A stretch of 64,000 bases of DNA, taken from positions 2,016,001 to 2,080,000 of the forward strand of contig OZ242318.1 of assembly GCA_965208105.1 (NCBI GenBank). The letters are read 5' to 3'. This DNA is from Candidatus Latescibacterota bacterium (GTDB lineage: Bacteria; Latescibacterota; UBA2968; UBA8231). Below, in pieces: positions 200 through 46,190 of this stretch. How positions within the stretch are numbered: position 1 is the first letter of the stretch; each line of letters begins with the position of its first letter. The notes under the pieces were generated by a model that saw nothing but the letters and a program-made list of their open reading frames with translations, was not told where the DNA came from and did not search any database. The position numbers and the translations under genes are program-made.

Positions 200-286
200 C
201 ACATAATGTTTTCACCGGGCCCGAACCGCGAAGCTGTTGCGCGAAGGCGCGTCAGCGCCGAAGCCCGGGCACGGTTGTGTTATATG
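200..286 (-). repeat. attC-like site 1 (core mutated TAAC>TAAT)
   Basis: cacataat...ccgggcccg/cccgggcacgg...gttatatg. Confidence 0.8.
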
Positions 287-309
287 CCCTGCCTCCGTCG
301 CACCGAGGA

Positions 310-912
310 TCAATTGCTCTCCTCCAGTCGATGCAAGTGGTAGGCATTGTTGTATTGGACAAGGGTCCAGATTCCCTCAGACAGAGACCATTCGGTAATG
401 CCTGTATTCAAAGGTTGCAGCCAGACCTTGGTCTCGGTTCCTGAAAAAAGCCTTTTCGTTGAGCCGGCGATGAATCCGCCATGAGTCACTGCTACTACTG
501 TTTGTCCGGCGAATCGTTGCGAGTAGGACAACAAGGCCGAATGTGCTCTGTCAGACAGCTCCTGGAAGGTTTCGGCGCCCGGAGGCGTGGAATCTCCATA
601 CTTTGCCTGGATCTGAGAGGTGGTGAGACCCTCGGCTTGTCCCATTCGCAGCTCACATAGATCTGGATCCTCCATTACGCATTGTGCCGGCAATACATCC
701 AACAGAATCTTGGCGGTCTGACGCGCTCGCGCAATAGTGCTGCTGAGCAGTGTTTGACAATCGGAGAATTCGCCTGACTCTCGCAGATGTGTCGCAAGCG
801 CATGAACTTGCTCCCTGCCCAGGTCTGTGAGGCCTGAGCACGTGCGCTCACCCGAGTTCGTCTCGGTAAGCTGGTCTTTGCCTTGTCCGTGCCGGACGAG
901 TACTATCCGCAT
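310..912 (-). CDS. Histidine phosphatase (phosphoglycerate mutase-like) family protein, cassette
   Basis: N-terminal LVRHGQ, SS-x-x-RA-x-QTA, VTHGGFI motifs. Confidence 0.88.
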   Translation of the reverse strand: MRIVLVRHGQGKDQLTETNSGERTCSGLTDLGREQVHALATHLRESGEFSDCQTLLSSTIARARQTAKILLDVLPAQCVMEDPDLCELRMGQAEGLTTSQIQAKYGDSTPPGAETFQELSDRAHSALLSYSQRFAGQTVVAVTHGGFIAGSTKRLFSGTETKVWLQPLNTGITEWSLSEGIWTLVQYNNAYHLHRLEESN

Positions 913-944
913 TGGATGCTAGCTTCACGAAGATTCTGGCATGA

Positions 945-1016
945 CATATAACGTCTCCACGGTTGCCAACAGGCCAAGCCACCGAAGGCGGCGCGGCGGG
1001 AGCCGGTTGTTTGAGG
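945..1016 (-). repeat. attC-like site 2 (degenerate)
   Basis: catataac...gtttgagg. Confidence 0.7.
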
Positions 1017-1026
1017 AGGTGAAAAC

Positions 1027-1914
1027 CTACCAAACCCCCGTGGCGCGTTCCGGACTTGCGACGCCTTCAGGGAAAAACCTGTAGCCTCGTTCCCAGTTTT
1101 CCCGCTGGCGACTTCGTGCACCCCACTCCAGTTCCCTCATCGCTCGCCCAAACCAGAACCAACGGCCTCTTTGCTTCAAATCATCCGTGTTAAAGCAGTA
1201 GCTGGAGAGAACCCCGTCGATGAACCCCTCTCCAAGCTCCCATAGCCATCCGAAGTCGCATGCGGGGTCCCCAATGACCACATCCCCGAAGTCAATTACC
1301 CCGGCAAAGCGACCACCATCCACCAGAATGTGCGGCGGTTCGATATCGGCATGGATTACACTGCGTAAAATCTCGCTTGAGAGGTCTGCCGCCATGATCT
1401 CCCGGACCACTTTGTCACAGTACGACAATTCGTCAGGGGTCAGAGTGCCTTGTCTCACGATCCGTATGTAGTCGAACAAGAAACCTCTCACCTCGTCATA
1501 CCACGGATCGTCTTGAGGGATGCCTAAGGATTCGGCTTCCCCCAGGGGAAGGCCGTGGAGGGCATTGAGAACCGCTGCGACACCACCCGCGAGGCCGAGG
1601 CGTTGATCCTCTGCCAGGGAGATGAATTCTTCATACGTCAGGGAATGTCCGGGAATCGAAGGATATCCAGCGACGCGGTACTCGCCGTCAACGTGTGTAT
1701 AGTCGGGAACTGGCAATCCCGTCTCTCGAAGACGCCTAAGCAGCTTGACCTCTTGCTCAAGGGGTTCGTGCTCCGGATCTTCACAGGCAAATCGAAATAC
1801 GTACGAGTCGTCAAGGAGCACTACATCGTGATCGTAGTGCAGTAACTCAGCCTCCTCCCAATCGAGATCAGGCCACAGTCGCCGCAATTCACCTAGACGC
1901 TGTTCGAGTTCCAC
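1027..1914 (-). CDS. Aminoglycoside phosphotransferase (APH/choline kinase-like) family protein, cassette
   Basis: IHADIEPPHIL and GVIDFGDVVIGDPACDF motifs. Confidence 0.85.
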   Translation of the reverse strand: MELEQRLGELRRLWPDLDWEEAELLHYDHDVVLLDDSYVFRFACEDPEHEPLEQEVKLLRRLRETGLPVPDYTHVDGEYRVAGYPSIPGHSLTYEEFISLAEDQRLGLAGGVAAVLNALHGLPLGEAESLGIPQDDPWYDEVRGFLFDYIRIVRQGTLTPDELSYCDKVVREIMAADLSSEILRSVIHADIEPPHILVDGGRFAGVIDFGDVVIGDPACDFGWLWELGEGFIDGVLSSYCFNTDDLKQRGRWFWFGRAMRELEWGARSRQRENWERGYRFFPEGVASPERATGVW

Positions 1915-1947
1915 GTGGATTTCTGTCCTTTGTCTACGCTTCCATGT

Positions 1948-2035
1948 CCTCTAACGTTATGCCGATATGCGAACCCGCGTCAGCGGGGTTGAGCGATGAC
2001 CGCCAGGCCAAAGCCGGGCACGGTCGTGTTGACCG
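1948..2035 (-). repeat. attC-like site 3
   Basis: cctctaac...gttgaccg. Confidence 0.75.
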
Positions 2036-2069
2036 ATGGCGGCACCCTCAACATGTCTCCACAACCGTT

Positions 2070-3002
2070 TCATGCTGCTCCTCGGAATAGCGGACCATGC
2101 CTCAATTTCCAAACACACTCATCAACCTCAGACTCATTATCGGTCTGCAAGAAACACATTAACCCCGAAAATTCACGAAGGATCCACAGCTGGCGCACGC
2201 GATGTTCAAGTAAACCGTCCATCCCACCACATTCCTGTGTGTAGGCCGCCAAAACCGCCTCGGCGAACTCTTGACCCAGGTGATGCTGGACCGCCAAATC
2301 CTGGGCGGGATCCCCCAAAGTGGCATCCTCGAAGTCTAGAACAGCCGCAACTTCTGAAACATCCTCGTCGACCAGGACGTTGGCGTAAAACAGATCGCCG
2401 TGAACAAGAACGGGCTCGTAGGTCTGCATTCGCTCGTCGGCTACAAACTTTTCCCACCAGCGACGCACCTCATGGTATTCGCCCAGCGATAGGGCAGTCT
2501 CAAGATGCGGCAATACGTTCTGTTGCATCGGGTTGAGGGCTTCCGGCCTGCTGTGAAAGAGCGGGAGATCGAGATCGACAAATTCCTCTACCGGAGTGCT
2601 GTGGAGCTGCCGGAGAAATCTGCCCAGGTCATCGGCGATCCGGTGCCAATCGAGAATTTCCAGGTGGCCCTTGTGCAAGGGCACGCCAGTGAGTTTTGGA
2701 TAGCCCAAAACTCCATACGGAGCCAGCTTGGAAGGCGAGGCGCACCACTTGGGATTGGGGACTGATAGATCGAGGTAGGGCGCTGCTCTCAGAAGCACCT
2801 GGGCTTCCCTATCGTAGCCTGCGGCAACAGACTCATTCTTGCTCAAGCGAAACACAATGCCGGCGGCGGATTCAACTACCAGGCTGGACACGCCGGCATC
2901 CAGCCGCTTCAGTGGAGCAATGCGTCCTAAATCCGGAAAAAGATCGCCCAGGTCCTGTTGAACTCTGGTGAGGTCGTTGAAATGATCCTGGTCGTCCAAC
3001 AA
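2070..3002 (-). CDS. APH-family phosphotransferase, cassette
   Basis: LVHGDLFYANVL and VLDFEDATLGDPAQDL motifs. Confidence 0.85.
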   Translation of the reverse strand: MLDDQDHFNDLTRVQQDLGDLFPDLGRIAPLKRLDAGVSSLVVESAAGIVFRLSKNESVAAGYDREAQVLLRAAPYLDLSVPNPKWCASPSKLAPYGVLGYPKLTGVPLHKGHLEILDWHRIADDLGRFLRQLHSTPVEEFVDLDLPLFHSRPEALNPMQQNVLPHLETALSLGEYHEVRRWWEKFVADERMQTYEPVLVHGDLFYANVLVDEDVSEVAAVLDFEDATLGDPAQDLAVQHHLGQEFAEAVLAAYTQECGGMDGLLEHRVRQLWILREFSGLMCFLQTDNESEVDECVWKLRHGPLFRGAA

Positions 3003-3038
3003 CTCTGTCTCTCTGACGCGTATGCCGTTAGCCGCTTT

Positions 3039-3115
3039 CGCTTAACTTCTCAGTGCCCCCGAACCGGCGCGGCGGTTGGGCGAAGGGCCTGGAGGCTGGG
3101 GCACGGGATTAGGCG
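3039..3115 (-). repeat. attC-like site 4 (degenerate)
   Basis: cgcttaac...gtgcccc/ggggcac...attaggcg. Confidence 0.7.
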
Positions 3116-4017
3116 AGGTCGGCCCCCCTGGAATTTCCAGGACTCGCTATCCCACTTTTTCGTAAAAAGACCATCAGATCTTCACGCACCCCAACACTTC
3201 TTTGGACAGGGCTGTGTGATTCATCCGGATACATCCGAAATTCGGCTCCGGGAATCCTCATTGCAAGATCCCGGCCCCAATCCACGGGCACTTCTCTGTC
3301 TTTATCCCCGTGAACGACAAGTGTGGGAGCCCCTATCCGACCACATTCGACAATCACATCTCTACGAAGGTATGCGCCAATCGCTTGCAACTGGGTTCCA
3401 TACCATTGCACACGCTCTATCAAGCTGGACCTCTCCACAAGTTTCTGTATTCGTTCTTCGTATTCTCGCAAGGTTCCTCGCTCCTTCATCTCCTCGCGTT
3501 CCCACAGGATGTCTAGAGAAAGCTCAACACCCTTTGGTCGATTCTTCCAAGCTGCCGCCGCATCCTGTTTCTCAAGGATTTCGACCTGTTCTTTGACAAT
3601 TGCGGTAATCGGGTCTTCCTCGGGCCAAAGATTCGCAGCGGTACCAGCCAAAACGAGTGTATTGACTCTCTCCGGATAGATCGTTGCAAACAACACTGCA
3701 ACTGGACCCCCTGCAGAAGAACCAATCAGGTGCGCCCTTTCCACTTCAAGGTAGCCTAGCAGCTCAGACAAATCCCGCACCTGATTCTCAATATCATAGC
3801 CACCCTCCGGACGAGAAGACAGCCAGCAGCCCCGGCGATCGTAGATCACAAATCGGAAATCTGAAGTGAAATCCGTCTCCCATCCCCACATACCACTCGA
3901 TTGCGCACGGAGATGCATGTCAAGAGAGGGGAATCCTCCGTGTATAAACACGACGACCTCGCCCTCGCCTCGTGCATCGTAGAACATCCGGAAGCCGTTT
4001 ACAGACGCATATGGCAT
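3109..4017 (-). CDS. Alpha/beta-fold hydrolase, cassette
   Basis: FIHGG, YDRRGC, GSSAGG nucleophile elbow, HGDKD. Confidence 0.88.
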   Translation of the reverse strand: MPYASVNGFRMFYDARGEGEVVVFIHGGFPSLDMHLRAQSSGMWGWETDFTSDFRFVIYDRRGCWLSSRPEGGYDIENQVRDLSELLGYLEVERAHLIGSSAGGPVAVLFATIYPERVNTLVLAGTAANLWPEEDPITAIVKEQVEILEKQDAAAAWKNRPKGVELSLDILWEREEMKERGTLREYEERIQKLVERSSLIERVQWYGTQLQAIGAYLRRDVIVECGRIGAPTLVVHGDKDREVPVDWGRDLAMRIPGAEFRMYPDESHSPVQRSVGVREDLMVFLRKSGIASPGNSRGADLA

Positions 4018-4053
4018 AGTTCCATCTCAGTAAGCTTTGCGGAGCCGACTTAT

Positions 4054-4135
4054 CGTATAACCTACCAGGGTTGCAGACGCCTGCCGCGGGAAGGTGTGCC
4101 GTCAGCGCCGAAGCCCGGGGGCTCAGTGTTAACTG
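4054..4135 (-). repeat. attC-like site 5 (degenerate)
   Basis: cgtataac...gttaactg. Confidence 0.7.
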
Positions 4136-4180
4136 ATGTTGTGGCCGGTATTGACTTCAAAACGCAGGGGGCGACGTACA

Positions 4181-4697
4181 CTACTTCTCCACGACAAAGT
4201 GAACATGGTCTGTTGCATCCCTGAACTGAGGCAGCTCCGAAGTCTCCGATGCGAATTCCACGACGTTCTCATATGCCGCTTGTTCATTCTTCCTGAGCGA
4301 CTCAAGAAGTGGTGCCATGCCTCCGACGAAGCTTTCTACACCCGCATAGCTGACGATTCGCAGCCCTACATCTTGGATTTCCTTGCCAGCGACCTCAGGG
4401 TTGGACCAGTGACATTCGGTAAAACCGGAAAGCTCACAAGCTTGGAAAGTCTTTTCGTCGAGCATGCTCCTCAGAAAGGTAGAATTCCTGAAGCGCTCTG
4501 GGAAATCGACTACCCCGGTTCTGATCAGCCCCCATGAATTGAGGAAGGCCACAATCGCCCTACTGTCCGGCTTTAGAATGCGAACCAGCTCGCTCAGAGC
4601 CTGAGATCGATCATCACTTTTGATAAAGCCCTGCATCCAACCGATCCCACTCGCTTTCAGGCGCTGAGTCGTAGTGGGTTTTGACGTACTTGCTCAT
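4181..4697 (-). pseudogene. Class I SAM methyltransferase with internal deletion/frameshift
   Basis: ATG at 4697 gives MSKYVKTHYDSAPESEWDRLD, out of frame with the C-terminal ALSELVRILKP segment; SAM-binding motif I is absent. Confidence 0.7.
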
Positions 4698-4710
4698 TCA
4701 AGCACAATTT

Positions 4711-4839
4711 CAGTTAAGGTTTTCCGCTTTGCGAACTAGGCGCGTCCCGAAGGGCTGGTGCGAGCTTTGCGAACCGAGAATCGGTTGCCACAGGCCCAAG
4801 GCGCCAAAGGCGCCGCAGCGCAAAACGTGCTGTTAAGTG
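4711..4839 (-). repeat. attC-like site 6 (long, internal duplication; core TAAC>TAAG)
   Basis: cagttaag...gctttgcgaac twice...gttaagtg. Confidence 0.75.
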
Positions 4840-4889
4840 AGGTAGCATCAACTAACTTAGTCTAAGCTCCTCATAACACGTCACTTAAC
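4832..4889 (-). other. Gene-less mini cassette body (~42 bp between sites)
   Basis: gttaagtga at 4832 matches tcacttaac at 4881-4889; no room for an ORF. Confidence 0.8.
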
Positions 4890-4969
4890 GTTTCAGTGCC
4901 CCCCAACCGGCGCGGCGGTTGGGCGAAGGGCCGAATTGCCCGGAGCAGGGAGCACGGACGTGTTACCTG
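4882..4969 (-). repeat. attC-like site 7
   Basis: cacttaac...gttacctg. Confidence 0.8.
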
Positions 4970-5796
4970 ACCGGGACAGTCTCAATTTGTCGCATTCTCG
5001 CCACAAAAGCCCATGGAATCTCCCTGAACTTTGACTGGCCTAGCTCCCTCTCCTCCCGAGGTTCAAATACGGGCTCGGCAATACCGTCCATGACTAATCC
5101 GGCATCGAAGAGGATTGAGAGCAGTGCAGACAAAGGTCTGTGGTAGTAGTGCTGAATGTCTCTTCCGCAGATGCCTCTTCCCACGCCTGCCACAGGCGTG
5201 ATATAAGAGCTAACCTTTATCGTGTGAATCTGCTGTCTTCCTTGCTCACCGTAACTTTCCTCAACGACCCTGGAAGTACCAGCGACGTTGTTGAAGCATG
5301 GATGCATAACTGAGAAAACAAATCTCCCCTCCGATTTCAGGATTCGAGGTATGGTCTGAGCAAGGGGACGAAGCTGGGCCAAATCCATTAGGGCCATGTT
5401 GCAAACAACGGCGTCGTAAGTTTCTCCATTAAGCGCCGCCAGCTGCTCCTCTGAGGTGACATCCATCACCTTGTATTTGATCTGTTCCTCATTCTCGCGG
5501 GTTCGCCGCCTGGCCATATCGATCATTACCTGGCTCACGTCAATCGCTGTGACCAAAATGCCTAACCGTGCTAGATGGCGAGCATAGATACCATTTCCGC
5601 AGCCGACATCGAGAATAACCTCTCCATTAGTGGGAAATAGCAGTTCATCGACCGAGGGTCTCACAAGCTCCAGATGGAAATCATTCCCTTGGTCTCCCAT
5701 CCGGCTGTCCCAAATGTCGGCCTGCTCATCCCACTCTCTCTTGGCAATATCAGAATTTTCGGGCCACTCGTCCGGGGGCTGATCCATTGATTTCAA
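4963..5796 (-). CDS. Class I SAM-dependent methyltransferase, cassette
   Basis: ILDVGCGNG, YDAVVCNMALMD; stop codon lies in the attC arm. Confidence 0.88.
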   Translation of the reverse strand: MKSMDQPPDEWPENSDIAKREWDEQADIWDSRMGDQGNDFHLELVRPSVDELLFPTNGEVILDVGCGNGIYARHLARLGILVTAIDVSQVMIDMARRRTRENEEQIKYKVMDVTSEEQLAALNGETYDAVVCNMALMDLAQLRPLAQTIPRILKSEGRFVFSVMHPCFNNVAGTSRVVEESYGEQGRQQIHTIKVSSYITPVAGVGRGICGRDIQHYYHRPLSALLSILFDAGLVMDGIAEPVFEPREERELGQSKFREIPWAFVARMRQIETVPVR

Positions 5797-5841
5797 TCCG
5801 CGATTCCTCTCTCAAGGATGATTTGCCTCATTCTTCAACGG

Positions 5842-5934
5842 CAGGTAAGGTTTCGCCGCTTTGCGAACCAGCGAAGCGGGTTGCCGAAGGCCAAGCCGCG
5901 ATCATCGTCCTTGCGCAAAACGCGCTGTTAGCCG
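5842..5934 (-). repeat. attC-like site 8 (core TAAC>TAAG)
   Basis: caggtaag...tttgcg/cgcaaa...gttagccg. Confidence 0.78.
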
Positions 5935-5968
5935 CCGTAGCTAAGCAATGATCCGGGATCAAGTTGCT

Positions 5969-6355
5969 CTACTCAAATAATCGCCGAACCGCAAGGGCAT
6001 TATGAACGAAAGTCTCTTCGAAAGGCGTGCGCCCATTCAAATTCCTGGACTCCCGTTCAGCTCCCCGATCTAATAGCAACTCCGCCACCTGTCGTTGGTT
6101 GCCGTGTGCAGCAGCATGAAGAGGTGTTGTGCCCCAGTGGGAGTTTTGGTTGTGCGCATTGATGCTTGCTCCTTGATCGAGCAAGTACGCCACTACCTCG
6201 GCATGACCCTTCCACGCGGCGCAGTGGAGTGGCATTGAACCATCCTTGTCTGTTGCGGCTAGAAGGGCTGCATCCCTGTTTATCAACAGCTTGACCGTCT
6301 TGATGTCGCCTCGCTTGGCCGCTTTGATTACCTGTTTCTCTTCCTCGGTTCCCAT
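5969..6355 (-). CDS. Ankyrin repeat protein, cassette
   Basis: Repeated PLHCAAWKGH, TPLHAAAHGN, GRTP motifs. Confidence 0.9.
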   Translation of the reverse strand: MGTEEEKQVIKAAKRGDIKTVKLLINRDAALLAATDKDGSMPLHCAAWKGHAEVVAYLLDQGASINAHNQNSHWGTTPLHAAAHGNQRQVAELLLDRGAERESRNLNGRTPFEETFVHNALAVRRLFE

Positions 6356-6435
6356 TTTTATCCTCTAAAAGGTGGAATGGTGATGAACCCCAGCCCGATC
6401 GTCAAAATTCGCTATAGGAGCTGGGTACCCGGAGG

Positions 6436-6466
6436 TCGGCGCAGCGCAAAACCGTGATGTTGTGGG
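6436..6466 (-). repeat. attC-like half site 9 (one arm deleted; cassette fusion)
   Basis: gcgcagcgcaaaaccgtgatgttgtggg only; no upstream TAAC arm. Confidence 0.65.
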
Positions 6467-6500
6467 AAGTGCGCTTTTCCACCGGCGCATCAAAACATTT

Positions 6501-7388
6501 CTATTTGCGCGGAAGGATCCAGGTCTCGTACGCCAGATGCCAATCCTCCAGATGATTGAGAAGGACTCCACTCTTGATCGATCGATCACAACCTGTAAGC
6601 CTGTGGATTTCTGCCTGTCGTGTCTCGGGATGCTCACGATTCAGTAAGTTGCGTTGAAACCAATCGAGTCGCGTGCGGTCTATTTCGCCTATTTGAGTGG
6701 TCACCCAGCTTTCAAACGCCATGTAGGTCGGTTGGTTCTCCGTGACGAAGGAGATCATCGCATCACGGTCGAGGCCAAGAACGTCCAATACGTGCTGATC
6801 CAATCCCCTGCCACATGCCGGGTAATCAGTGCGGAGCAATCCCCTGGACTTCAGGAGAACTTTGTGCCAGGTACGGGCAAGTTGCAGGACATCGAGGGGA
6901 CCTACGTCGATACTGCTGACCAAAGGAGGAATTCCAGCAGGAATCTGACCTTTGACAAAGTCATTGGCGTGAAATAGATGCCAGTCCTGAAGCGTATTCA
7001 GCAACAAAACAGATGTATAAGTATCTGCTTCGGGATCGAATCCAATATCTTCATAGGTCTCCGTAATTTTGTGTGGCCGAATGTGGCGCCGATATTTGAC
7101 GATTTCATTGAATCTCGCGATCTGAGCTGTGGGCAATTGACCGATTTTTCTAGTGATGATCCACCGTTCGAACGAAACATAGTCGGGTAGTTCTGATCGG
7201 AGATAGTCGTATATCTCGTCGACATCCAAATTCATCGCCTGGAGACAAAAGGTGTCCAGGCCACCACTATTGTCCGGGTAACCGGGATCAAGAAGATCAA
7301 CAGCCCGTGTCACCGCCTTCCACCACGTTCGAGGCAGCTGGCAAACGCCAATGCTGCCCCTGCAGATACTACTGATCAGGGGGACCAT
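6501..7388 (-). CDS. Tandem DUF5069-like domain protein, cassette
   Basis: Two internal repeats (PLISS..G.IGVCQLPRTWWK / PLVSS..VGPLDVLQLARTWHK; DYP..G.GLD; P.Y..FE.W). Confidence 0.65.
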   Translation of the reverse strand: MVPLISSICRGSIGVCQLPRTWWKAVTRAVDLLDPGYPDNSGGLDTFCLQAMNLDVDEIYDYLRSELPDYVSFERWIITRKIGQLPTAQIARFNEIVKYRRHIRPHKITETYEDIGFDPEADTYTSVLLLNTLQDWHLFHANDFVKGQIPAGIPPLVSSIDVGPLDVLQLARTWHKVLLKSRGLLRTDYPACGRGLDQHVLDVLGLDRDAMISFVTENQPTYMAFESWVTTQIGEIDRTRLDWFQRNLLNREHPETRQAEIHRLTGCDRSIKSGVLLNHLEDWHLAYETWILPRK

Positions 7389-7443
7389 AGTAGATTCGTC
7401 CGGTCTGAAGCCTTTTGATAATCAACGGGCCTATCACGCATTT

Positions 7444-7527
7444 CCCATAACTTTCTCGCCGTGCCCCTTCCGCGAAGCGGTTGCGCGAAGGGCGATGTCC
7501 CGAAGCCTGGCACGAAGGTGTTACGCG
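7444..7527 (-). repeat. attC-like site 10
   Basis: cccataac...gttacgcg. Confidence 0.8.
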
Positions 7528-7611
7528 ATGGCGTGCCTGATACGTGCTTGCCGGGACGGCAAGTACGCTCGCTCACCTGAGTCACTGTAACTTTCCGCTC
7601 ACTGCACAAGA

Positions 7612-8427
7612 TTACGTCTTGTCGCCGTTCAGAGAGACTGAATGCTCCTTGACGATCATCCTATCTGCAAGAAGGGTGACAAAGTTGAAGCAAGGCGGAT
7701 GCTCTTCGTCAAAGTTCACTTCCTGTTCATGGGGCCAATAGTTGAGTTGGCAAAAGGTGCTGCCTACACTGATATAGGCAATGCCATCCTTGTGGATATG
7801 GGTCCCCCGATGAACATGACCGAAGAAAACGCCTCGGAGACGCTCTCTTGCCGGCAACAGTGCTTCATGTAAATCAGTGCCATTAAGCATGCCCACGTCT
7901 CTTGAATACCACTTGGAATCCAAATCGAGGGGCGAGTGATGAATAAAAACAGTCAATGAGCCGTTCTGCCGGCTAACCTCCGCTCGAACAAAATCAAGCT
8001 GGTCTTCTGTTACTTTACCAAAGTGGCCGACCTCTTCATATGGCTGCTGGGCATCCAGCACCAGAAACCGTTCGCCCTGATACGAGAATCGATAGCAGTT
8101 CAGGTCCGAATTGGATAGAACATCCTCTTTAGGACCCATTGTCAGATGCTTGCGCATATAATCACGCGTGTCATGATTGCCTGTTACAAAGTAGGTCGGG
8201 ATGTTGATTTGAGAAAATGCTTCCGCCGCCAGTTCGTAAGCGACCTCAGTATTATGATTCGCTACGTCCCCTGTATGAATCACAAATTGGGGGCGTGTCG
8301 GCAGGCTATTTATGGCTTCAAGGACCCGCAATAGATTACGGAATGGATTGTTGCCTAGCGCGATCCAATCTCTCAAATGTCCTAAGTGTGTGTCACTGAT
8401 ATGGACGAAATGCAGGGAATCTGCCAT
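7612..8427 (-). CDS. Calcineurin-like metallophosphoesterase (CpdA/Icc-like), cassette
   Basis: HISDTHLG, HTGDV, GNHD, GHVH; start at ATG 8427 after GGAGGAGG. Confidence 0.9.
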   Translation of the reverse strand: MADSLHFVHISDTHLGHLRDWIALGNNPFRNLLRVLEAINSLPTRPQFVIHTGDVANHNTEVAYELAAEAFSQINIPTYFVTGNHDTRDYMRKHLTMGPKEDVLSNSDLNCYRFSYQGERFLVLDAQQPYEEVGHFGKVTEDQLDFVRAEVSRQNGSLTVFIHHSPLDLDSKWYSRDVGMLNGTDLHEALLPARERLRGVFFGHVHRGTHIHKDGIAYISVGSTFCQLNYWPHEQEVNFDEEHPPCFNFVTLLADRMIVKEHSVSLNGDKT

Positions 8428-38764: not shown

Positions 38765-38802
38765 AATGCATTATAATAACACCAATTCGTTTTTTCTCAT
38801 GC

Positions 38803-38901
38803 CGTATAACGTTGTGCCGGTTTGCGAACGCCGAGCTTGTTGAGGCGTTGCCGAAGGCCAAGCCGCCGTAGGCGGCGAAGCGGAAACAGGTGTGTTAGAT
38901 G
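38803..38901 (-). repeat. attC-like site 43
   Basis: cgtataac...gttagatg. Confidence 0.85.
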
Positions 38902-38949
38902 AAGTGGGATTCAAACCAATGCCAAATCTGCATAGAAAACATCTTGAGA

Positions 38950-39594
38950 TCAGTCGCCGGTGCCTTGTCCGGTCAGTTGCGTCGTTTGGTTCAACGGCTT
39001 TCTCGCCACGGCCTTGTTGATTGGGTGCGTGTGCCGAATACTACCCGGATGCTCATCCTCAATGGTGTAGCTCTCTTCTAATTCGATGTCCCAATCCTCA
39101 TAGAGTGAGAACAATTTGCCTTCTTGGAACAGTCCGAGGCAGTGCGCTTCCAGATCCGCTGGCGGAGGAATCCTGTCAGTGAAAACGACAACGACGTTCG
39201 TGCCGCCCGGAATTGTATGAGACTTGAATTCCGAGACTAACTTCATCCATTGTTTTCGAGCGATCAGATGCAGACACCCGTGCGAGACAATGAGGTCGAA
39301 CTTGCCAGAGAATGAATACTGACGCATATCAGCGACATCGGCGCGTATGCTGATTCCATCACGGTCCGCCAGCATTTGCAACTTCCGGATGCCTGACTCC
39401 GAAATATCGACTGCCGTAACATCAAACCCCTGCTTCGCAAGGAAGAGTGCATTCCGTCCTTCTCCGCAACCTAAGTCCAAAACTTTTGCTCCCTGCACCA
39501 TCTGATTTGCAAGTTCTAGGATCTCAGCACTCGGATCGCCAAATGTCTTAGCCTCAAGATCCGCGTACCCTTTGGTCCATGGAAAATCAATCAT
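38950..39594 (-). CDS. TehB-like SAM methyltransferase, cassette
   Basis: VLDLGCGEGRNALFLAKQGFDVTAVDIS; start taken as ATG 39594. Confidence 0.87.
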   Translation of the reverse strand: MIDFPWTKGYADLEAKTFGDPSAEILELANQMVQGAKVLDLGCGEGRNALFLAKQGFDVTAVDISESGIRKLQMLADRDGISIRADVADMRQYSFSGKFDLIVSHGCLHLIARKQWMKLVSEFKSHTIPGGTNVVVVFTDRIPPPADLEAHCLGLFQEGKLFSLYEDWDIELEESYTIEDEHPGSIRHTHPINKAVARKPLNQTTQLTGQGTGD

Positions 39595-39702
39595 CGAATT
39601 CACTGGCTGTCGAACTTGCGCTTGAGTGGCGACTATGAAAGTATATCTCCAGAAAAATATTGGGAGATACACTGCAAGGCCCCGACTATACTTTTCCCAT
39701 TT

Positions 39703-39786
39703 CATCTAACGTTCTCGCCGTGCCCGAACCGCGAAGCGGTTGCGCGAAGGGCGAAAGCACGAAGCCGGGCACGGACGTGTTACCTG
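39703..39786 (-). repeat. attC-like site 44
   Basis: catctaac...gttacctg. Confidence 0.9.
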
Positions 39787-39831
39787 CCGTGGCCATCCTG
39801 CACGAATGAAAAATTCCTCGTAGCAGCCGAT

Positions 39832-40629
39832 TCACACCTCTGGCTTAAAGCCTACGGCGCGACACCACGCAAAGGCCGCATAGGCATCGGGAGATACCGA
39901 CCACTCCTCCCAGGCTTCGGTTATTGCTTTCAACTCGTCATCTGTAGCAAGTCCGTGTTCTTGCGCGTTCTGAACAAAGGCTCCGTCCTGGAAGTAGTGC
40001 ACTTGTCTGCTCCCAAACGTCTTCACTTTGTCCTCAGTTCCATAGCAGAGATATTTGGAAGTGGCAGTCACATCATTAAAACTCGCGCCATTCAATAGAC
40101 CGCGAAGTTCGCGGCCGCAATATGGACCGCCGGTGCCTTTCAGAGTCCAGAGCTGCTCTCGAATTGAATAGCTGCGTCGAAGTAAGGACGAACGTGGTCC
40201 GCTGACGATGAAACCACCGTATTCCACGTCTGCGATTCCTAATACCCCACCGGGTTTGAGGACGCGCTTCACCTCCAGGAGTGCGTCTTGTGGGCGATCC
40301 AGGGTCTCGGCCACCGAGTGGCAGAGGCAGGCATCGAAGCTATTGTCTGCGAAATCGAGTTTGTAAACATCACCGACGCAAAAATCAATGTTTCCAATCG
40401 CGTGGACGCGAGCATACGTTTCAGCATCTCCGAAACCATCATCGCTAAGATCAACACCGACTACGCTACGCACCTTCTCGGCCACACCCAAAGCAATGCT
40501 TCCGCCACCGCATCCTACGTCCAGGACTTTGAACTCTGGTGCCAAGTGTGGAAACAGGAACTCGGCATAATCGTCCGCGTTCCGGCCGGCCATGTAGTCT
40601 TCAAAGCTCATGCCAAAGGTGTCTTCCAA
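39832..40629 (-). CDS. UbiE-like SAM methyltransferase, cassette copy 2 (diverged)
   Basis: Paralogue of 27682..28479 with several substitutions. Confidence 0.9.
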   Translation of the reverse strand: MEDTFGMSFEDYMAGRNADDYAEFLFPHLAPEFKVLDVGCGGGSIALGVAEKVRSVVGVDLSDDGFGDAETYARVHAIGNIDFCVGDVYKLDFADNSFDACLCHSVAETLDRPQDALLEVKRVLKPGGVLGIADVEYGGFIVSGPRSSLLRRSYSIREQLWTLKGTGGPYCGRELRGLLNGASFNDVTATSKYLCYGTEDKVKTFGSRQVHYFQDGAFVQNAQEHGLATDDELKAITEAWEEWSVSPDAYAAFAWCRAVGFKPEV

Positions 40630-40644
40630 TGCGGAAAGCCATGG

Positions 40645-40804
40645 CAGGTAACGTTCTTAAGTGGCCGAACTGGCAAAGCCACAACTCATCCTAACCGCTG
40701 TGCCGCTCGGGCAGCCACTACTCCTTCCCAACGTCCGCACGTTAGGGCCAGTTGGGACGGAGGCCGCCGCAGGGCGGCCGCAGCCGGCCACTGTGTGTTA
40801 TGCG
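40645..40804 (-). repeat. attC-like site 45 (160 bp, expanded inner arm)
   Basis: caggtaac...agtggccg/cggccact...gttatgcg; aactggc/gccagtt encloses cctaac...gttagg. Confidence 0.8.
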
Positions 40805-40856
40805 AAGGTGCCCCCCGAGGCTACCCGCACCGCGTTCCACTACCCTCACAATGCTG

Positions 40857-41450
40857 TCATGTCGAGGTCCTCAATAGATGACGAACGGGCTCGTCAGACC
40901 ACAGCTGCACCTCAATGAACCGCTCCACAGGTGTCCCCCAGTAGTTGTCGTATTCAACTCGAGGCATTCCGTACTCCCCGATCACGGCCTCAAGTTCATC
41001 GATGAGGTACACGCGATCGTGATACGGTCTCGCCTCCTGGCGCGGGATTCCGAAATCCGCCCCGAAACCCATGGCCTCGAAACTGTCAGAATAGGTGAAG
41101 CTAGTGACGGGTGACGGGAGGTCGTTCAGAGCGACCACGACTTCCTTGGTGTCGGGAGCGAGCTGCTTGAACCACTCGGATCTACCCAGGACAAAGTAGT
41201 GTGGAGCGCTCCGCTCGGGCCGTCCGCCCCGGGCGACGAAGAGGCCTCGGAGCCGTTCCTCCGTCAGCCGTCGCATTTCAATATACTTGCGGCCGAACGG
41301 CCGCTTGTGATCACGGACTCGTCGGAGTTCCTGAAGCCCCTGCCGCACACCCTCAAGGTCTGTCTCAGCGAGGTCTGACAGGTTCAGAAACGGATGTCTG
41401 TCGGACAGGTGATAGTGCGTTACGAATTCTGGAATCTTCAATCGCGCCAT
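40857..41450 (-). CDS. Hypothetical protein, cassette
   Basis: 197-aa ORF filling the cassette (PFLNLSDL, PHYFVLG, IEVQLWSD). Confidence 0.75.
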   Translation of the reverse strand: MARLKIPEFVTHYHLSDRHPFLNLSDLAETDLEGVRQGLQELRRVRDHKRPFGRKYIEMRRLTEERLRGLFVARGGRPERSAPHYFVLGRSEWFKQLAPDTKEVVVALNDLPSPVTSFTYSDSFEAMGFGADFGIPRQEARPYHDRVYLIDELEAVIGEYGMPRVEYDNYWGTPVERFIEVQLWSDEPVRHLLRTST

Positions 41451-41500
41451 CTCCGACTACCGCTAGGACCCCTCCCTTCCAAATACGTTCCTGGCACTTT

Positions 41501-41592
41501 TGCATAACGTTCTGCCGGTTTGCGAACCCGCGCAGCGGGTTGCCGAAGGCCAAGGCGCGTCTGCGCCGCAGCGAAAACCGATGTGTTATCTG
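41501..41592 (-). repeat. attC-like site 46
   Basis: tgcataac...gttatctg. Confidence 0.87.
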
Positions 41593-41634
41593 ACATGCAA
41601 TTCGGTGAGCTCCAAGTCGAATAGATGCATTCCT

Positions 41635-42084
41635 CTATACGAACTCCTGAGCACGTACAGTGAATGGTGAAGTTGTATATGACTGAAACAAAACCCGCCC
41701 ATCAAATGACAGAAGCTGCCGAAGCCTTCGGCTGTAGCCAGGGTGATCTATCATCTTATCGGCATCTGTCTTCTGAACCCACGAAACATCAAGAGTCTCC
41801 TCTCCAATCCGGGCGTCGCCAGACAACCAAGATCCAAGGAAATCGAAAATAACTCGACGCTCACTAAGGTTGGTATACACCCCAACAAGTCGATTAGCCG
41901 AGGCCAGGATGTTGGCCTCTTCTCTGACTTCACGGATGACCCCATCGAGGATGGACTCACCTTCCTCTATTTGGCCACCTGGAAACTCCCACCCCCTTCG
42001 TGGGGTTTTAACCAGAAGGACATCGTCTCCTCGTTCCACGAGAATTCCAGCAGCGACGATATGTTTCGGTGGGTTCGGATGCAT
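41635..42084 (-). CDS. NUDIX hydrolase, cassette
   Basis: WEFPGGQIEEGESILDGVIREVREEA Nudix box. Confidence 0.92.
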   Translation of the reverse strand: MHPNPPKHIVAAGILVERGDDVLLVKTPRRGWEFPGGQIEEGESILDGVIREVREEANILASANRLVGVYTNLSERRVIFDFLGSWLSGDARIGEETLDVSWVQKTDADKMIDHPGYSRRLRQLLSFDGRVLFQSYTTSPFTVRAQEFV

Positions 42085-42174
42085 TTGTTGCCTTCAGGAT
42101 GACCTTAAATTCCGGTCGATTCGGAATATCCAACCGGACGGGGATGGTAAGATAGTAGCCAAAAAAATGCATGT

Positions 42175-42259
42175 CAGATAACGTTCTCGCCGTGCCCGAA
42201 CCGCGAATGCGGTTGCGCGAAGGGCGAATGCCCGAAGCCGGGCACGGACGTGTTATAGG
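42175..42259 (-). repeat. attC-like site 47
   Basis: cagataac...gttatagg. Confidence 0.9.
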
Positions 42260-42302
42260 ATGTGCCAGATTGGGTGGAGGGGAAAGACATTCCACCAGCA
42301 CA

Positions 42303-42799
42303 TTATGTCCAATATTTTCGGCAGATAAAGGCCAATTCATAGAGAGCCGCGAAATCCTGGTCGTCAGCGGAAAACAGATCTGTTGCCTTATCGTACTCGA
42401 TAGTCCGCACTTCAGTGATCGAACCTCCCGCACATGAATGGGGTGGGGGAAATGAGGTAGCCTGGGCTGGGCCTCTTGTGAAACGCAATGGTACATCCCG
42501 ATCGGTTTGACGTGGCTCAAAGCTGCGCCCGTTTCCTCCATCATTTCCCGATGTGCAGCCTGCAACTAGCTCTCCCCAGGTTCCAGCGTCCCGCCAGGCA
42601 ACACCCACCTGCCATTCTCGCGACGGGTCACGAGGCACTCAGTCGCCGAGACAAATGGAATTACATAGGACGAGCCGCAACACGAATCTACGACTTCGCG
42701 ATCGAAATTGACGAAATCAATGCCCTGCCTCCCGCGATCCCGCAATGCTGGAAGATCTCGGACAAATCTGTCGAAATCTGAGTCATCCAGAGATTTCAC
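42303..42799 (-). pseudogene. NUDIX hydrolase pseudogene (TAG in the Nudix box plus downstream frameshift)
   Basis: LPGGTLEPGES*LQAAHREMMEETG; C-terminus in another frame. Confidence 0.8.
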
Positions 42800-42821
42800 A
42801 GCACTTCCCTATCTGGCATTT

Positions 42822-42911
42822 CCTATAACGTTCCCGCGGGCTGCGAACCCGTGCAGCGGGTTTTCTGCGAAGGCGCGAATGCGCCGAAGCCGTAGCCCGT
42901 CGTGTTAGCCG
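42822..42911 (-). repeat. attC-like site 48
   Basis: cctataac...cgggctgcg/cgtagcccg...gttagccg. Confidence 0.88.
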
Positions 42912-42962
42912 TGTGTGCAGCCCGCACTGGCCTTGCCAGGACGGCAAGGCCTCTTGATTTGC

Positions 42963-43514
42963 TTAGGCATCCGTGGGACCAGGCGACCAGCCGATCGATT
43001 GGGCCCAACCGTCCGCACGGGACATGATTTCCCAGATTATTGGATTTTTTGAATCGGTGTACCTCTTCCTGTCCTCTCGGTACTTCATAGCCAACTCCCG
43101 TTTAACCTTCTCGTAACGTTTCTGCTCTTCCAAGTGTTCTCGGAGATAGTCACGAAACAACAAGGCGAACTGCTCAGACCAGCTGCCAGCCTTGCGGACG
43201 TGGATATGTGTTCGTCTCTTCCCTGGCAGTTCTCGAAAATACCGCTTTGTCCTTTCAGGGTTGTCCTTCCGCCAGATGTAGCCAATTTGCTCCAGCGGAA
43301 CTCGAAACGGATCAACGGGGTCGAGTTCCTTCACTGAAATCTGCACATCAATGATGGGCTTGGCTGCCAGACCTGCGATTGAGGTAGATCCAATATGGTC
43401 AATCCGGATCGCCACGTTCCCAAGAGCTTCCTTCATCCTGATCCCGAGCTCGCGGAAGAGCATTGGCCACTCATCCGAGTAGTCCTTGATCTCAATCACG
43501 TAAGGTGTCGTCAT
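42963..43514 (-). CDS. GrpB (UPF0157) family protein, cassette
   Basis: IDHIGSTSIAGLAAKPIIDVQ, RTHIHVR, LFRDYLR. Confidence 0.9.
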   Translation of the reverse strand: MTTPYVIEIKDYSDEWPMLFRELGIRMKEALGNVAIRIDHIGSTSIAGLAAKPIIDVQISVKELDPVDPFRVPLEQIGYIWRKDNPERTKRYFRELPGKRRTHIHVRKAGSWSEQFALLFRDYLREHLEEQKRYEKVKRELAMKYREDRKRYTDSKNPIIWEIMSRADGWAQSIGWSPGPTDA

Positions 43515-43583
43515 TGATCGACTGCTCAGTTCATGGATTTGGCGGCGCAGGAGGCGCCGCCGCATTCTTTGCGGGCTGCATTA

Positions 43584-43688
43584 CGGCTAACGTTCTCGCG
43601 GGCTGCGAACCTGCCGCAGGCAGGTTTCCTGCGAAGGCCGAATGGCCGGAGCCGCAGCCCGCCGCAGCGTAAACCGCTGTGTTATCGG
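43584..43688 (-). repeat. attC-like site 49
   Basis: cggctaac...gttatcgg. Confidence 0.83.
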
Positions 43689-43712
43689 AAGGTCAATACA
43701 TCCCTCGCGTGC

Positions 43713-44489
43713 CTACTTGACCGCCAAAAGGTTGATCCTGCGGAAGGTTTCGAAACACGTGCCATCCGTTTGACGCGTCTCCTCAACCATTCGTTTTGTT
43801 ACAACCTCGTGAAATCGACTCCCTGTTTCAGAATCGAGGTACTGCTTGAATGGTATCACTGCCGGATGGTCAACCCAACCTAACATTGTCTGCGTATCGG
43901 GGAAGAATCGATCAGCGTTCTCTCCCCATACCCGCAGACTCGAAAAGGATGAGTTTCCTACGAGCTTCTCGTATGCTTCCACTGAAGGCATGTACCAAGG
44001 CCATTCGAAATCTGAAAAAGCTCCGGAAAATTCCTCGCTGGCCATTACCTCCAAGGCTACACGATTGAACGTGCCGCAGTTCCCCTCACCTGCAAAATTA
44101 ACCCTAACTACGCCAGAGCGTTTGAGAGCACGACAAAAGATCTCGAGGAGCATCTGGTGGTCCTTGATCCAGTGCAAAGTGGCATTGGAGAATATCACAT
44201 CGAACTCGTCCTGAAATTCTGCGTCGAGAATATCGATCAGTCGGAACGAAAGATTGGCTCGGTGGATATTCTGTGCCGCCTCGATCATTCCTTCAGAGGT
44301 GTCGATTCCAACAACTGAACCGGCGGAAACTGCGTCAGCGAGATTCGCGGTGAGGGTGCCGTCGCCGCAACCTACATCCAGAATGCACTCGTTGCCGGCG
44401 AGATCAAGTTCGTCGATCAATCGCGCTCCCCATTCTTTCTGGTGAGCGGACGTCTCCTGGTAGCGCTTTCCGTCGAAATCTACTCTCAA
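43713..44489 (-). CDS. Trans-aconitate methyltransferase-like SAM methyltransferase, cassette
   Basis: ILDVGCGDG, FDVIFSNATLHWI; start taken as TTG 44489 (the track ORF runs into the attC). Confidence 0.87.
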   Translation of the reverse strand: MRVDFDGKRYQETSAHQKEWGARLIDELDLAGNECILDVGCGDGTLTANLADAVSAGSVVGIDTSEGMIEAAQNIHRANLSFRLIDILDAEFQDEFDVIFSNATLHWIKDHQMLLEIFCRALKRSGVVRVNFAGEGNCGTFNRVALEVMASEEFSGAFSDFEWPWYMPSVEAYEKLVGNSSFSSLRVWGENADRFFPDTQTMLGWVDHPAVIPFKQYLDSETGSRFHEVVTKRMVEETRQTDGTCFETFRRINLLAVK

Positions 44490-44503
44490 CTCACTTTGAC
44501 TTT

Positions 44504-44601
44504 CCGATAACGTTCCGCCGGTTTGCGAACGCCGAGCTTGACGAAGGGTTGCCGAAGGCCAAGGCGCGACAGCGCCGCAGCGCAAACCGTGCTGTTAGAT
44601 G
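44504..44601 (-). repeat. attC-like site 50 (first cassette)
   Basis: ccgataac...cggtttgcg/cgcaaaccg...gttagatg. Confidence 0.9.
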
Positions 44602-44624
44602 AAGCTCTCTCAGAAGTCAGATCT

Positions 44625-44990
44625 TTACGCGTCAATGGCTTCACGTGTAACGGATGGTTCGAAAAAACGCTCCTGGAACTCCGTCAAAGCCAGGATCTGC
44701 TCGTCTGAGTAGTCTCTACCGGCAGGTACGACAATGAGCTTATCATCATCGTCGTCCGATCGTTGAATGACGGCGATACATCTGCCTGTAAAAGCCTCTA
44801 TCGGTTTGAAGACACCCAGGATATAGGCGTCCATATTTTCTCCGTCAGGCGCCGGAACGTCCGGAAGAAATCCGTAGTTGACAGGATAGATGAAGCCCGC
44901 TTCAGGATGCCTGGAGCCAAGGGGTCGATCAATCGTAAGATCGACCATTTCTCCGATGAACTTCCTCGCATCCACGAAATTCCCCGCCAT
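44625..44990 (-). CDS. Short inorganic pyrophosphatase-family protein, first cassette
   Basis: IDRPLGSRHP, YPVNYGF, DGENMDAY, DDDDKLIV. Confidence 0.87.
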   Translation of the reverse strand: MAGNFVDARKFIGEMVDLTIDRPLGSRHPEAGFIYPVNYGFLPDVPAPDGENMDAYILGVFKPIEAFTGRCIAVIQRSDDDDDKLIVVPAGRDYSDEQILALTEFQERFFEPSVTREAIDA

Positions 44991-45038
44991 GGTCGTTTAA
45001 TCTCCCAGCCATGTTGAAGTGAGGCAACGCTGCTCCGA

Positions 45039-45080
45039 GTTTCATCTAACTGCCTGTATGCGAACCATTGGTTCGTATAA
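45039..45080 (-). other. attI-like primary recombination site
   Basis: tttcatctaac complements the far end of the first cassette (gttagatgaa 44594) and has no partner attC arm; arm-6 bp-arm GTTTCATCTAA-CTGCCT-GTATGCGAACC plus an extra arm GGTTCGTATAA. Confidence 0.75.
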
Positions 45081-45251
45081 TGGCCGCCAAGTGCTACCTA
45101 TCTGAAACGAAGGTACCTATTGTTGTGAACAGTCGCAACCAGTATCCTCGAGGTCGTATATTCTCGTAACTCTTTGCGACTGTTCGAGATATATCGATTC
45201 TTCTGAGGTCCGGCGCATCTGGCATGCATTTCTCTGGCAAAGGTTTGGAGT

Positions 45252-46190
45252 ATGCACGCAATGCGGAAATATCGCGGACACCCGGGCCTGACCGATGAAG
45301 AGGTAGCTGTCCTCAGCCGGGTCGAGTTGGAGCTGAAGCTGAGGGGATACGCCAGGAAGACGCGGAAGTCGTACATGGGCCACTGCCGGCGATTCCTTCA
45401 ATGGAAACGGGGCTACCGCGGCTAAGGGCAGGAGGAAGTGCGGTCGCATCTGGGTTGGCTCCTCGCCCGGGGGGTGAGCCGCTCCGCCTTCAACACCACC
45501 TACAGTGCCTTGAGCTTTCTCTATAGGGAAGTTCTGATGCAGCCCGCCTCCCTGGAGAGGCTGCGAAGACCGAGGGGCGGACGGCAGCTTCCCGAAATCC
45601 TCAGCCAGCGGGAAGTGCTGCGTATCCTCGATTCTCTCCGCAATCCGAAGCACCGGCTCATCCTTGCCCTGCTGTATGCCGGGGGCCTGCGTGTGGGAGA
45701 GGTCGTGCGTCTCAAGGTGAGCGATATCGACAGCGATCGCATGCTGATCCGCGTTCGCCAAGGCAAGGGACGAAAAGACCGATATACCTTGCTGCCCCGG
45801 TCGATTCTCGAGGATCTCCGGTCTTACTGGAAGGCGTACCGGCCGTCGACATGGCTGTACCCCGGAGCCCGGGAAGGACGGCATCTCACCGAACGGTCGG
45901 TGCAGAAGATGTTCTCCCGTGCGGTCGTCGCCGCGGGAATCCGCAAACGGGTGACCGTGCACACCCTGAGACACAGCTTTGCGACGCACCTGCTCGAAGG
46001 GGGAACCGATCTGCGCTACATCCAGGAGCTCCTCGGGCACAGAAACTCGAAAACGACGGAAATCTACACCCACGTGCAGCGCAAGGACCTGGTGCGCATC
46101 GAGAGTCCGCTCGACGCGCTGTTGGGTCACGGCGGTAGCCCTGAGCAGGTTAGAGGACGCACCTTTCCGCGCCACGGCGATGAGAGGTGA
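45252..46190 (+). pseudogene. Tyrosine recombinase (integron-integrase-like, lacking the IntI I2 insertion) with in-frame TAA at 45423-45425
   Basis: N-terminal ELKLRGYARKTRKSY (SAM-like domain) in frame with LLYAGGLRVGE, GKGRKDR, HTLRHSFATHLLE, IQELLGH, TTEIYTHV, SPLD. Confidence 0.85.

Follow-up and report, generated by a model that had tools for sequence, protein, structure and literature searches.

By the definition current in the field, an integron has an integrase with the IntI-specific domain, and, in the sections of Cury et al. 2016 cited here and below (PMC4889954), other recombinases near attC sites are set aside as 'not IntI': 50 recombinases with only a PF00589 domain were reported near attC sites, four intermediates between IntI and Xer were always accompanied by fewer than three attC sites, and these proteins were judged not to be IntI. 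The IntI domain is likewise required by Ghaly et al., in the part of that work cited here (10.1101/2022.02.06.479319). The passages of Escudero et al. 2016 on which we draw (PMC4792948) treat the I2 domain and the extrahelical bases of the sites as a chicken-and-egg paradox, and the cited part of a preprint by Smyshlyaev et al. (10.1101/542381) places the insertion-less recombinases associated with the insertion sequences IS91 and IS3 together with IntI in an 'Integron-like' subgroup. Full-text searches of the literature brought up no account of cassette arrays headed by an insertion-less integrase, which is no proof that there is none; Supplementary Figures S1 and S5 of PMC4889954 may bear on this point. 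Here we describe such an arrangement in a 64,000-nt stretch of DNA (hereafter the window; contig OZ242318.1 of assembly GCA_965208105.1, positions 2,016,001 to 2,080,000), where a tyrosine recombinase gene of an IntI-sister type (45252..46190, plus strand) stands at the head of about 49 gene cassettes. Our reading, to which we assign a probability of about 0.72, is that this is a chromosomal integron-type cassette platform driven by an insertion-less IntI-sister recombinase and not by a canonical IntI, and that it is probably frozen in this strain. The original prediction, made from the letters of the window, had proposed a parallel or ancestral cassette-capture system, and this is supported by the score of the protein against the integron integrase model TIGR02249, by the phylogeny, by the lack of a canonical IntI, by the conserved coupling of gene and array, and by the turnover of cassettes at the attI-like site.

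The frame 45252-46190 is open except for one in-frame TAA at 45423-45425 (codon 58), and, because of this nonsense codon, the array is probably frozen in this strain, save for any enzyme acting in trans. All the catalytic residues (R147, K172, H237, R240, H263 and Y272) are there, as are the domains PF13495 and PF00589 (E 8.3e-41 for the latter). Among the NCBIfam models, TIGR02249 fitted best, but its 234.9 bits are short of the cut-off of 265, and the match came in two stretches (model positions 2-179 and 235-315 in the genome search). The second-best family, NF040815 ('site-specific tyrosine recombinase/integron integrase', XerA-type), was also under its cut-off (211.9 against 220 bits), and so were the equivalogs XerD (181.9 against 329.6) and XerC (180 against 335.15). 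By sequence, the best match in the PDB was VchIntIA (2a3v), with residues 28-190 and 209-288 of the query aligned to residues 13-178 and 239-318, so that 18 query residues stand opposite 60 IntI residues. VchIntIA was also the best fold match of an AlphaFold model (predicted local distance difference test, pLDDT, 82), followed by XerA. The likeness to archaeal XerA thus consists in the second-best family and the next-best fold, but the score is under the NF040815 cut-off and the gene stands beside a cassette array instead of a dif-type site. In a 112-row alignment, both IntI-specific segments, the I2 segment of ~31 amino acids and a second one of ~12, are present in every canonical IntI row and absent from the window protein and from its close and distant relatives; intact close homologues with 91-98% identity also have no insertion. 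The predicted lack of the IntI insertion is therefore borne out by the two-stretch match, by the 18 residues against 60 and by the multiple alignment.

The tree-building proposed with the original prediction puts the recombinase outside IntI as well. In a 100-row IQ-TREE tree, whose only outgroup was Xer proteins from the phylum of the window genome, IntI and the insertion-less proteins together split from Xer at a starred support of 99. The canonical IntI proteins (35 rows, including IntI1 and cyanobacterial IntI) are monophyletic, at a starred 100, with the window protein outside, and the 59 insertion-less rows are their sister group (Shimodaira-Hasegawa approximate likelihood ratio test, SH-aLRT, 91). 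The window clade (11 rows, starred 99) is nested deep within this sister group, and the separate Xer-like genes found elsewhere in the genome group apart. The insertion-less family is very large, with 4104 cluster representatives at E<=1e-30. In a FastTree tree of 117 rows, the IS91-linked recombinases formed one clade (starred 99), sister at a support of 81 to a 26-row clade (starred 96) that holds the window clade and two other array-linked lineages of Gemmatimonadota; this agrees with the 'Integron-like' subgroup in the cited part of Smyshlyaev et al. (10.1101/542381). On our reading, the window recombinase is a member of that subgroup, which is also the home of the IS91-associated recombinases. 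An IS91-type Y2 transposase lies directly downstream of the recombinase gene in 27 of 80 diverse loci from many phyla. Unlike in these elements, the window gene has no adjacent Y2 transposase, and a cassette array and an attI-like site are found instead; a tblastn search with a Y2 (HUH) transposase found none anywhere in the genome of the window or at the A-clade loci. The phylum is labelled Gemmatimonadota here on the grounds that the canonical IntI of a genome from the same family is 100% identical to a protein recorded as 'integron integrase [Gemmatimonadetes bacterium]'.

Left of the gene, 49 co-oriented folded repeats of ~60-160 nt each lie between minus-strand cassettes, over window positions 201-44600. 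R1, a covariance model built from 16 hand-structured sites, gave 47 plus-strand matches in the window at E<=1, of which 45 were at E<=0.001, all of them within 201-44600; two more sites (4055-4134 and 40646-40803) were added by a scan for TAAC...GTTA. R1 gave only two minus-strand matches, both weak, and the covariance model search found no site in 44601-64000. The cassettes (~49, 286..45043, minus strand) usually have one open reading frame (ORF) each, followed by the cassette's own site: the longest ORF is on the minus strand in 47 of the 49 inter-site intervals and usually fills the interval. A Pfam match was obtained for 19 of the 24 cassette ORFs scanned, namely four GNAT acetyltransferases, four methyltransferases, two APH phosphotransferases, two alpha/beta-hydrolases, and one each of ANT(2'')-like, AadA_C/NTP-transferase, metallophosphoesterase, HAD, HigB toxin, GrpB and pyrophosphatase-like proteins. 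The HigB-like toxin ORF (15856..16215, minus strand; PF05015, E 1.3e-15) lies within the interval 15549-16311. Three cassettes are duplicated at 96-98% identity, each copy being a 'site plus ORF' unit bounded by sites. Two of them are adjacent (21308..23178, minus strand) and recur separately in the array, 21308-22181 matching 34053-34927 (97.8%) and 22137-23178 matching 30006-31048 (97.6%), and the third (27542..28529, minus strand) has its second copy at 39695-40679 (95.7%). The G+C content is 51-57% over positions 1-46000 against 61-67% to the right. An integron layout of co-oriented cassettes, attI-like junction and divergent recombinase gene, with some 50 cassettes, duplicated cassettes and toxin-antitoxin cassettes among them, had all been predicted, and each of these points held, with 49 sites counted and the HigB-like toxin cassette found.

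A typical site reads on the plus strand as a triplet followed by TAAC, seven free nucleotides (N7), a 9-bp stem, two small hairpins, the other arm of the 9-bp stem, four free nucleotides (N4), and GTTA followed by a triplet. The spacers are of 7 nt (sometimes 6) on the 5' side and 4 nt (sometimes 3) on the 3' side, and the 9-bp stem is free in sequence. Of the 49 sites, 39 have an exact TAAC, 43 have an exact GTTA, and 31 have a 5' arm that is longer by 3 nt, N7/N4 being the commonest class (17 sites). The site structure was written by hand from single-sequence folds because RNAalifold predicted no pairs on a plain MAFFT alignment of 35 sites; Rfam gave no match in the window at gathering thresholds. 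On the model-fitted alignment, 92.3% of the cells are paired, against 35-51% with the partners slid, and 26 of the 28 pairs show changes on both sides, values that none of 500 shuffles reached. The sites are under structural selection. Between neighbouring sites, the triplet after GTTA is the full complement of the triplet before the next TAAC in 34 of the 48 pairs, where we estimate ~0.75 by chance, and the failures lie mostly in the distal 10 kb. Such complementarity is the signature of an exchange at the core in which the flanking bases move with the cassette.

The branched top that had been predicted for the sites was found, in the form of the two small hairpins above the 9-bp stem, and it shows covariation. 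The other two expectations stood in part. Ends of the GTTA type are indeed unlike GTTRRRY, but they do not serve as a diagnostic mark, as the sites of a canonical Planctomycetota integron read GTTCGTC and similar. The absence of an extrahelical base holds as the N7/N4 internal loop was drawn, but in this commonest class the loop also admits a drawing in which one A or T bulges out of the 3' arm. For comparison, three canonical arrays were oriented like the window, so that their integrase lay at the right on the plus strand and their cassettes on the minus strand: a class 1 dfrA14 cassette, a Gemmatimonadota integron and the Planctomycetota integron (9 sites). The sites of these three arrays have two bulges on the plus-strand 3' arm, whereas those of the window have three extra bases on the 5' arm (31 of the 49). 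This asymmetry is an observed difference and not a rule, because the canonical sample is small (11 sites).

The array meets the recombinase gene at an attI-like site (45044..45086, plus strand). It consists of a cassette-derived triplet, TAAC (45047-45050), a 7-nt spacer (45051-45057), a hairpin or palindrome of 9 bp (45058-45066 with 45070-45078) and a 4-nt spacer, and no GTTA partner follows it. In all six orthologue loci, conservation extends from the recombinase gene ~200 nt upstream, as far as an invariant TAAC; left of it the sequences are unrelated, and the first cassette differs every time. Compensatory changes preserve the stem, which occurs in four variants. Moreover, no cassette of 150 nt or more is common to the window array and 20 kb of the arrays of four relatives (G001, G016, G014 and G010; G and L numbers denote genomes and loci). 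A conserved attI side, differing first cassettes and the lack of shared cassettes indicate a turnover at one fixed point beside the gene. From the attI-like site to the recombinase start, the intergenic region (45087..45251) has conserved blocks, read by eye for the window genome (G000) and the same four relatives, and presumably carries promoters or regulatory sites. The hairpin 45058-45078 is, in the orthologue loci too, also a near-perfect palindrome around CGAAC-N5-GTTCG; it could be the operator of a dimeric protein, instead of or besides a folded DNA element.

The window genome is a single contig of 4.85 Mb, and no match over the TIGR02249 cut-off was found in it or in any of five relatives that carry the orthologue (G001, G016, G014, G010 and G011); a true IntI elsewhere in the genome, which the original prediction had named as the case that would speak against it, was thus not encountered. 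Five of the six platform genomes without a canonical IntI are assembled in one or two contigs. Canonical IntI does occur in 17 of 168 genomes of the phylum, including nine of the same family. R1 sites were found in six of seven family genomes with the A-type recombinase (orthologues of at least 72% identity), and in two of the nine family genomes with canonical IntI, the other seven having none; both of these two (G008 and G021) also have an insertion-less relative next to the sites. The sites lie directly upstream of the orthologue and on the same strand in G001, G016, G014, G010 and G118. Two arrays of G119 end in decayed recombinase pieces in the same orientation, and G077, from another family, has an intact orthologue, a conserved attI junction and at least 18 sites on the expected side. 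Altogether, orthologues, many of them decayed, head arrays of the same type with the same geometry in at least seven Gemmatimonadota genomes. At the canonical IntI loci, R1 gave no convincing match in L057-L061 (one marginal, E 0.64, in L058), and neither the broader model R2 nor a geometry scan allowing one mismatch found any site in the ten loci L057-L061, L065, L066, L131, L132 and L144. The co-occurrence search with a covariance model that had been suggested thus shows that the sites accompany the orthologue across genomes and are rare with canonical IntI. By the IntegronFinder definition (PF00589 plus intI_Cterm), as given in the cited sections of PMC4889954, the window array would have no IntI and would resemble a cluster of attC sites lacking integron-integrases (CALIN), but a specific conserved recombinase gene and an attI stand at its head; the intermediates in those sections had fewer than three attC sites, and here ~49 sites follow one recombinase.

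Assembled contigs show that the array has also been reshuffled in nature. Parts of the stretch are present in sequencing runs of seven studies, some labelled sponge or marine metagenome, and contigs of four runs were compared with window positions 26301-46300. In runs X4 and X11, from two studies other than the best-matching one, position 29293 is joined to 45053, that is, the TAAC of a distal site is joined to attI, the shorter side measuring 90 letters. As nothing but the core is common to the two sides, a repeat-induced misassembly is unlikely, and the cassette 28588..29293 (minus strand) lies directly at attI in these contigs. Other joints at site starts link 30958 to 41504 (two runs), 34881 to 30006 (two runs) and 38839 to 44546 (one run).

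Sites of the same kind were found beside more distant insertion-less recombinases. Those with 50-56% identity (G040, G008, G122 and G123) have them past the 3' end of their gene, which thus runs in the direction of the cassettes; sites and ORFs keep their relative strands, and G040 has at least 17 sites over 45 kb. The geometry scan (TAAC-N(k+3)-stem...stem-N(k)-GTTA, at most one mismatch) had matches beside insertion-less recombinases in the window (on the plus strand only), in L052, L053, L055 and L062-L064, and also in L105 (Firmicutes) and L069 and L081 (Bacteroidales), with a background of 0.33 matches in the shuffled window. R2, run on 89 loci, added one further site outside Gemmatimonadota, in L080 (Spirochaetota). 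On the two Bacteroidales contigs and the Spirochaetota contig, the sites have an arm excess of 2-3 nt and lie just past the gene. L105, whose recombinase has ~40% identity, repeats the layout of the window, with five units of ~1 kb, minus-strand ORFs and sites of the form TAAC-N7-9 bp...9 bp-N4-GTTA, the triplet chain holding at all four junctions. Just before the recombinase start of L105 there is a LexA-box-like palindrome (L105 5069-5086), which we take to resemble the Gram-positive LexA (Cheo) box and which hints at SOS control, as in integrons.

Some other searches of these loci were discarded. At two mismatches, the geometry scan gave 27 matches in 1.06 Mb against ~23 by chance (our estimate), which is noise unless otherwise supported. 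A generic hairpin scan (AAC...GTT, energy per nt) was dropped, as it recovered only one site in a canonical array with repeated site ends. Self-BLAST showed dispersed repeats in five loci, of which L070 and L120 are IS91-linked or have repeats of another kind, and L131, L132 and L144 are canonical integrons. Many of the contigs L067-L146 end within 1-2 kb of the gene, which limits what the absence of sites means there; such ends would fit assembly breaks at repeats or multi-copy elements. At L058 (G079:C1:2484000-2503999), an IS91-family unit made up of an insertion-less recombinase and a Y2 transposase (9492-12787) lies immediately downstream of the canonical intI, and its recombinase part recurs at three places in G079 with equal scores.

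Taken together, the element seems to work like an integron, yet it fails two defining tests of IntI membership. The protein has neither the I2 segment nor the second segment, and it falls outside the IntI clade. It shares with canonical integrons the divergent recombinase, the attI junction, co-oriented cassettes with an ORF and then a site, a crossover at an AAC/GTT core with flanking bases that travel with the cassette, structure conserved rather than sequence, duplicated and toxin-antitoxin cassettes, typical cassette functions and frequent decay of the integrase. It differs further from them in that its attI holds a hairpin of the cassette-site geometry. That the recombinase family and the arrays form one system seems probable to us. 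In the mechanism that we envisage, new cassettes would enter at the conserved attI, with the crossover within or beside TAAC, and the three bases outside TAAC and GTTA would travel with the cassette. By analogy with integrons and with XerCD on CTX-phi, the recombinase may bind a folded single strand at an R box, formed by the pairing of TAAC with GTTA, and at the stem. Polarity might then be set by the 3-nt asymmetry of the arms, and not by extrahelical bases of the kind read by the I2 helix of IntI; one strand would be exchanged, and replication would resolve the junction, again as in these models. The XerCD case, as described in the cited passages of PMC4792948, offers an insertion-less Xer-type enzyme acting on the folded attP(+) of CTX-phi, where the folded strand largely mimics a duplex, with an unpaired centre; here, on the other hand, there are a dedicated recombinase gene, a many-site array and an attI, and no phage borrowing the dimer resolution of its host. 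We regard the chances that folded single-strand exchange without I2 is the mechanism as about even.

Several observations weigh against the reading of the array as a platform driven by its own recombinase. Most platform genes are damaged in the species-representative genomes: a stop codon interrupts those of the window (TAA), G016 (TGA) and G014 (TAG), G118 has a stop or a frameshift, the match in G010 is truncated, and G119 has fragments. Activity may be rare or past. Among the 21 family genomes with at least three R1 sites, 13 have no full-length relative of the recombinase (E<=1e-60), and no recombinase remnant was found near the arrays of the closed genome G150. We infer the specificity of the enzyme for its sites from their co-occurrence, the evidence for reshuffling consists of assembled contigs and not raw reads, covariation was counted on a model-fitted alignment, which leans towards the structure, and the arm asymmetry was set against three canonical arrays only, with their 11 sites. 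In the FastTree tree, the array-linked recombinases are not one clade, and six label changes are needed. Finally, among the 80 diverse loci, such sites occur at only L105, L069, L081 and L080, compared with 27 IS91-linked loci, and hence the role in arrays is a minority use of the family.

One may ask, then, whether the sites are moved by another enzyme, such as the host XerC/D or some other factor, and the recombinase is co-inherited or otherwise employed, for example in array stabilisation. The hairpins without clear extrahelical bases do resemble the XerCD substrate attP(+) of CTX-phi (PMC4792948, in the passages cited), the genome has separate Xer-like genes, and arrays persist and seem reshuffled despite many broken platform genes. 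However, the same site geometry stands beside divergent family members in four phyla, which co-inheritance by itself is hard to reconcile with, and the attI junction lies ~200 nt from the recombinase start in all six orthologue loci, so we hold this explanation to be unlikely. An ordinary CALIN, made by a canonical IntI that is now gone or works in trans, with the insertion-less recombinase as a passenger, would accord with the presence of canonical IntI in 17 of the 168 genomes of the phylum and in nine genomes of the family, with the frequency of arrays lacking any recombinase (13 of 21 genomes), and with the verdict of Cury et al. 2016, in the cited sections of PMC4889954, that a recombinase near attC is no IntI if it lacks the IntI domain. 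Yet in none of the six platform genomes, five of them in one or two contigs, was a canonical IntI found, seven of the nine family genomes that do have it are without an R1 site, and no convincing site was obtained with R1, R2 or the geometry scan at the canonical IntI loci. In addition, attI and the recombinase gene are conserved together, with cassettes turning over at the same TAAC, and the 'orphan' arrays of G119 bear decayed recombinase remnants at their ends. We therefore consider an ordinary CALIN unlikely, slightly more so than movement by another enzyme.

The protein might instead be a degenerate canonical IntI that has lost the insertion secondarily, and the array a decaying ordinary integron, since the best family and structure matches are IntI and the gene is a pseudogene here. 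Against such a loss, the protein is nested among thousands of insertion-less proteins (the 4104 cluster representatives), starred branches part it from the monophyletic IntI clade, and its intact homologues of 91-98% identity also have no insertion. A single gain of the insertion on the IntI stem is the simpler history, because the Xer outgroups are without it too, and we find a secondary loss very unlikely. Least credible of all, to the point where we give it hardly any weight, is that the repeats are intergenic sequences resembling repetitive extragenic palindromic (REP) elements or terminators among ordinary chromosomal ORFs without cassette mobility. They are indeed GC-rich hairpins downstream of ORFs, but the triplet chain is complete in 34 of 48 neighbouring pairs, whole cassettes are duplicated, the array contents are entirely different in relatives, joints occur at sites and attI in other samples, and the G+C content is 52-57% in the array region but 61-67% in the flank.

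If a conserved insertion-less platform with up to ~50 cassettes is accepted, both the concept of an integron and the search tools that depend on it would be widened, some CALINs would be reclassified as complete elements, and a natural test system for folded-DNA recombination without the I2 helix would become available, along with new structure-specific recombination sites for engineering. A broader proposal, which we make tentatively and at somewhat less than even odds, is that of a second widespread integron-like lineage in Gemmatimonadota, Firmicutes, Bacteroidales and Spirochaetota, with insertion-less enzymes, polarity given by the 3-nt asymmetry and a hairpin attI. If true, its members would be living examples of a stage before I2 and would answer the chicken-and-egg question of the origin of attC and I2, and many published CALINs would be complete elements of the insertion-less kind. 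Gemmatimonadota associated with sponges or the sea are shown to be large reservoirs of cassettes, some of which encode homologues of aminoglycoside-modifying enzymes.

A number of minor features were seen in and around the array. The low-G+C island (53-61%) with minus-strand ORFs extends ~8 kb to the left of the window (contig 2008000-2016000), where R1 found no sites; this extension is probably a decayed distal part of the array, and the island would then measure ~54 kb. Clusters of sites of the same type are present elsewhere in the genome, at ~1.041-1.046, 1.076-1.080, 2.738-2.751, 3.335-3.338 and 4.486-4.490 Mb, the one at 2.74 Mb with at least 12 sites; having no recombinase of this family nearby, they are CALIN-like satellites. 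Within the array, the sites 4756-4825 (weak, E 0.016) and 4883-4968 are only 57 nt apart, so the 'cassette' between them is empty, and the unusually long site 40646-40803 (158 nt), whose ends are normal but whose interior differs, may be a fusion of two sites or bear an insertion. The high-G+C right flank (46407-48780) begins with a PhyH-family dioxygenase gene and an ORF that looks sulfatase-like; no homologue of these two genes was found within the ~1.5 kb compared beside the recombinase gene at eight homologue loci.

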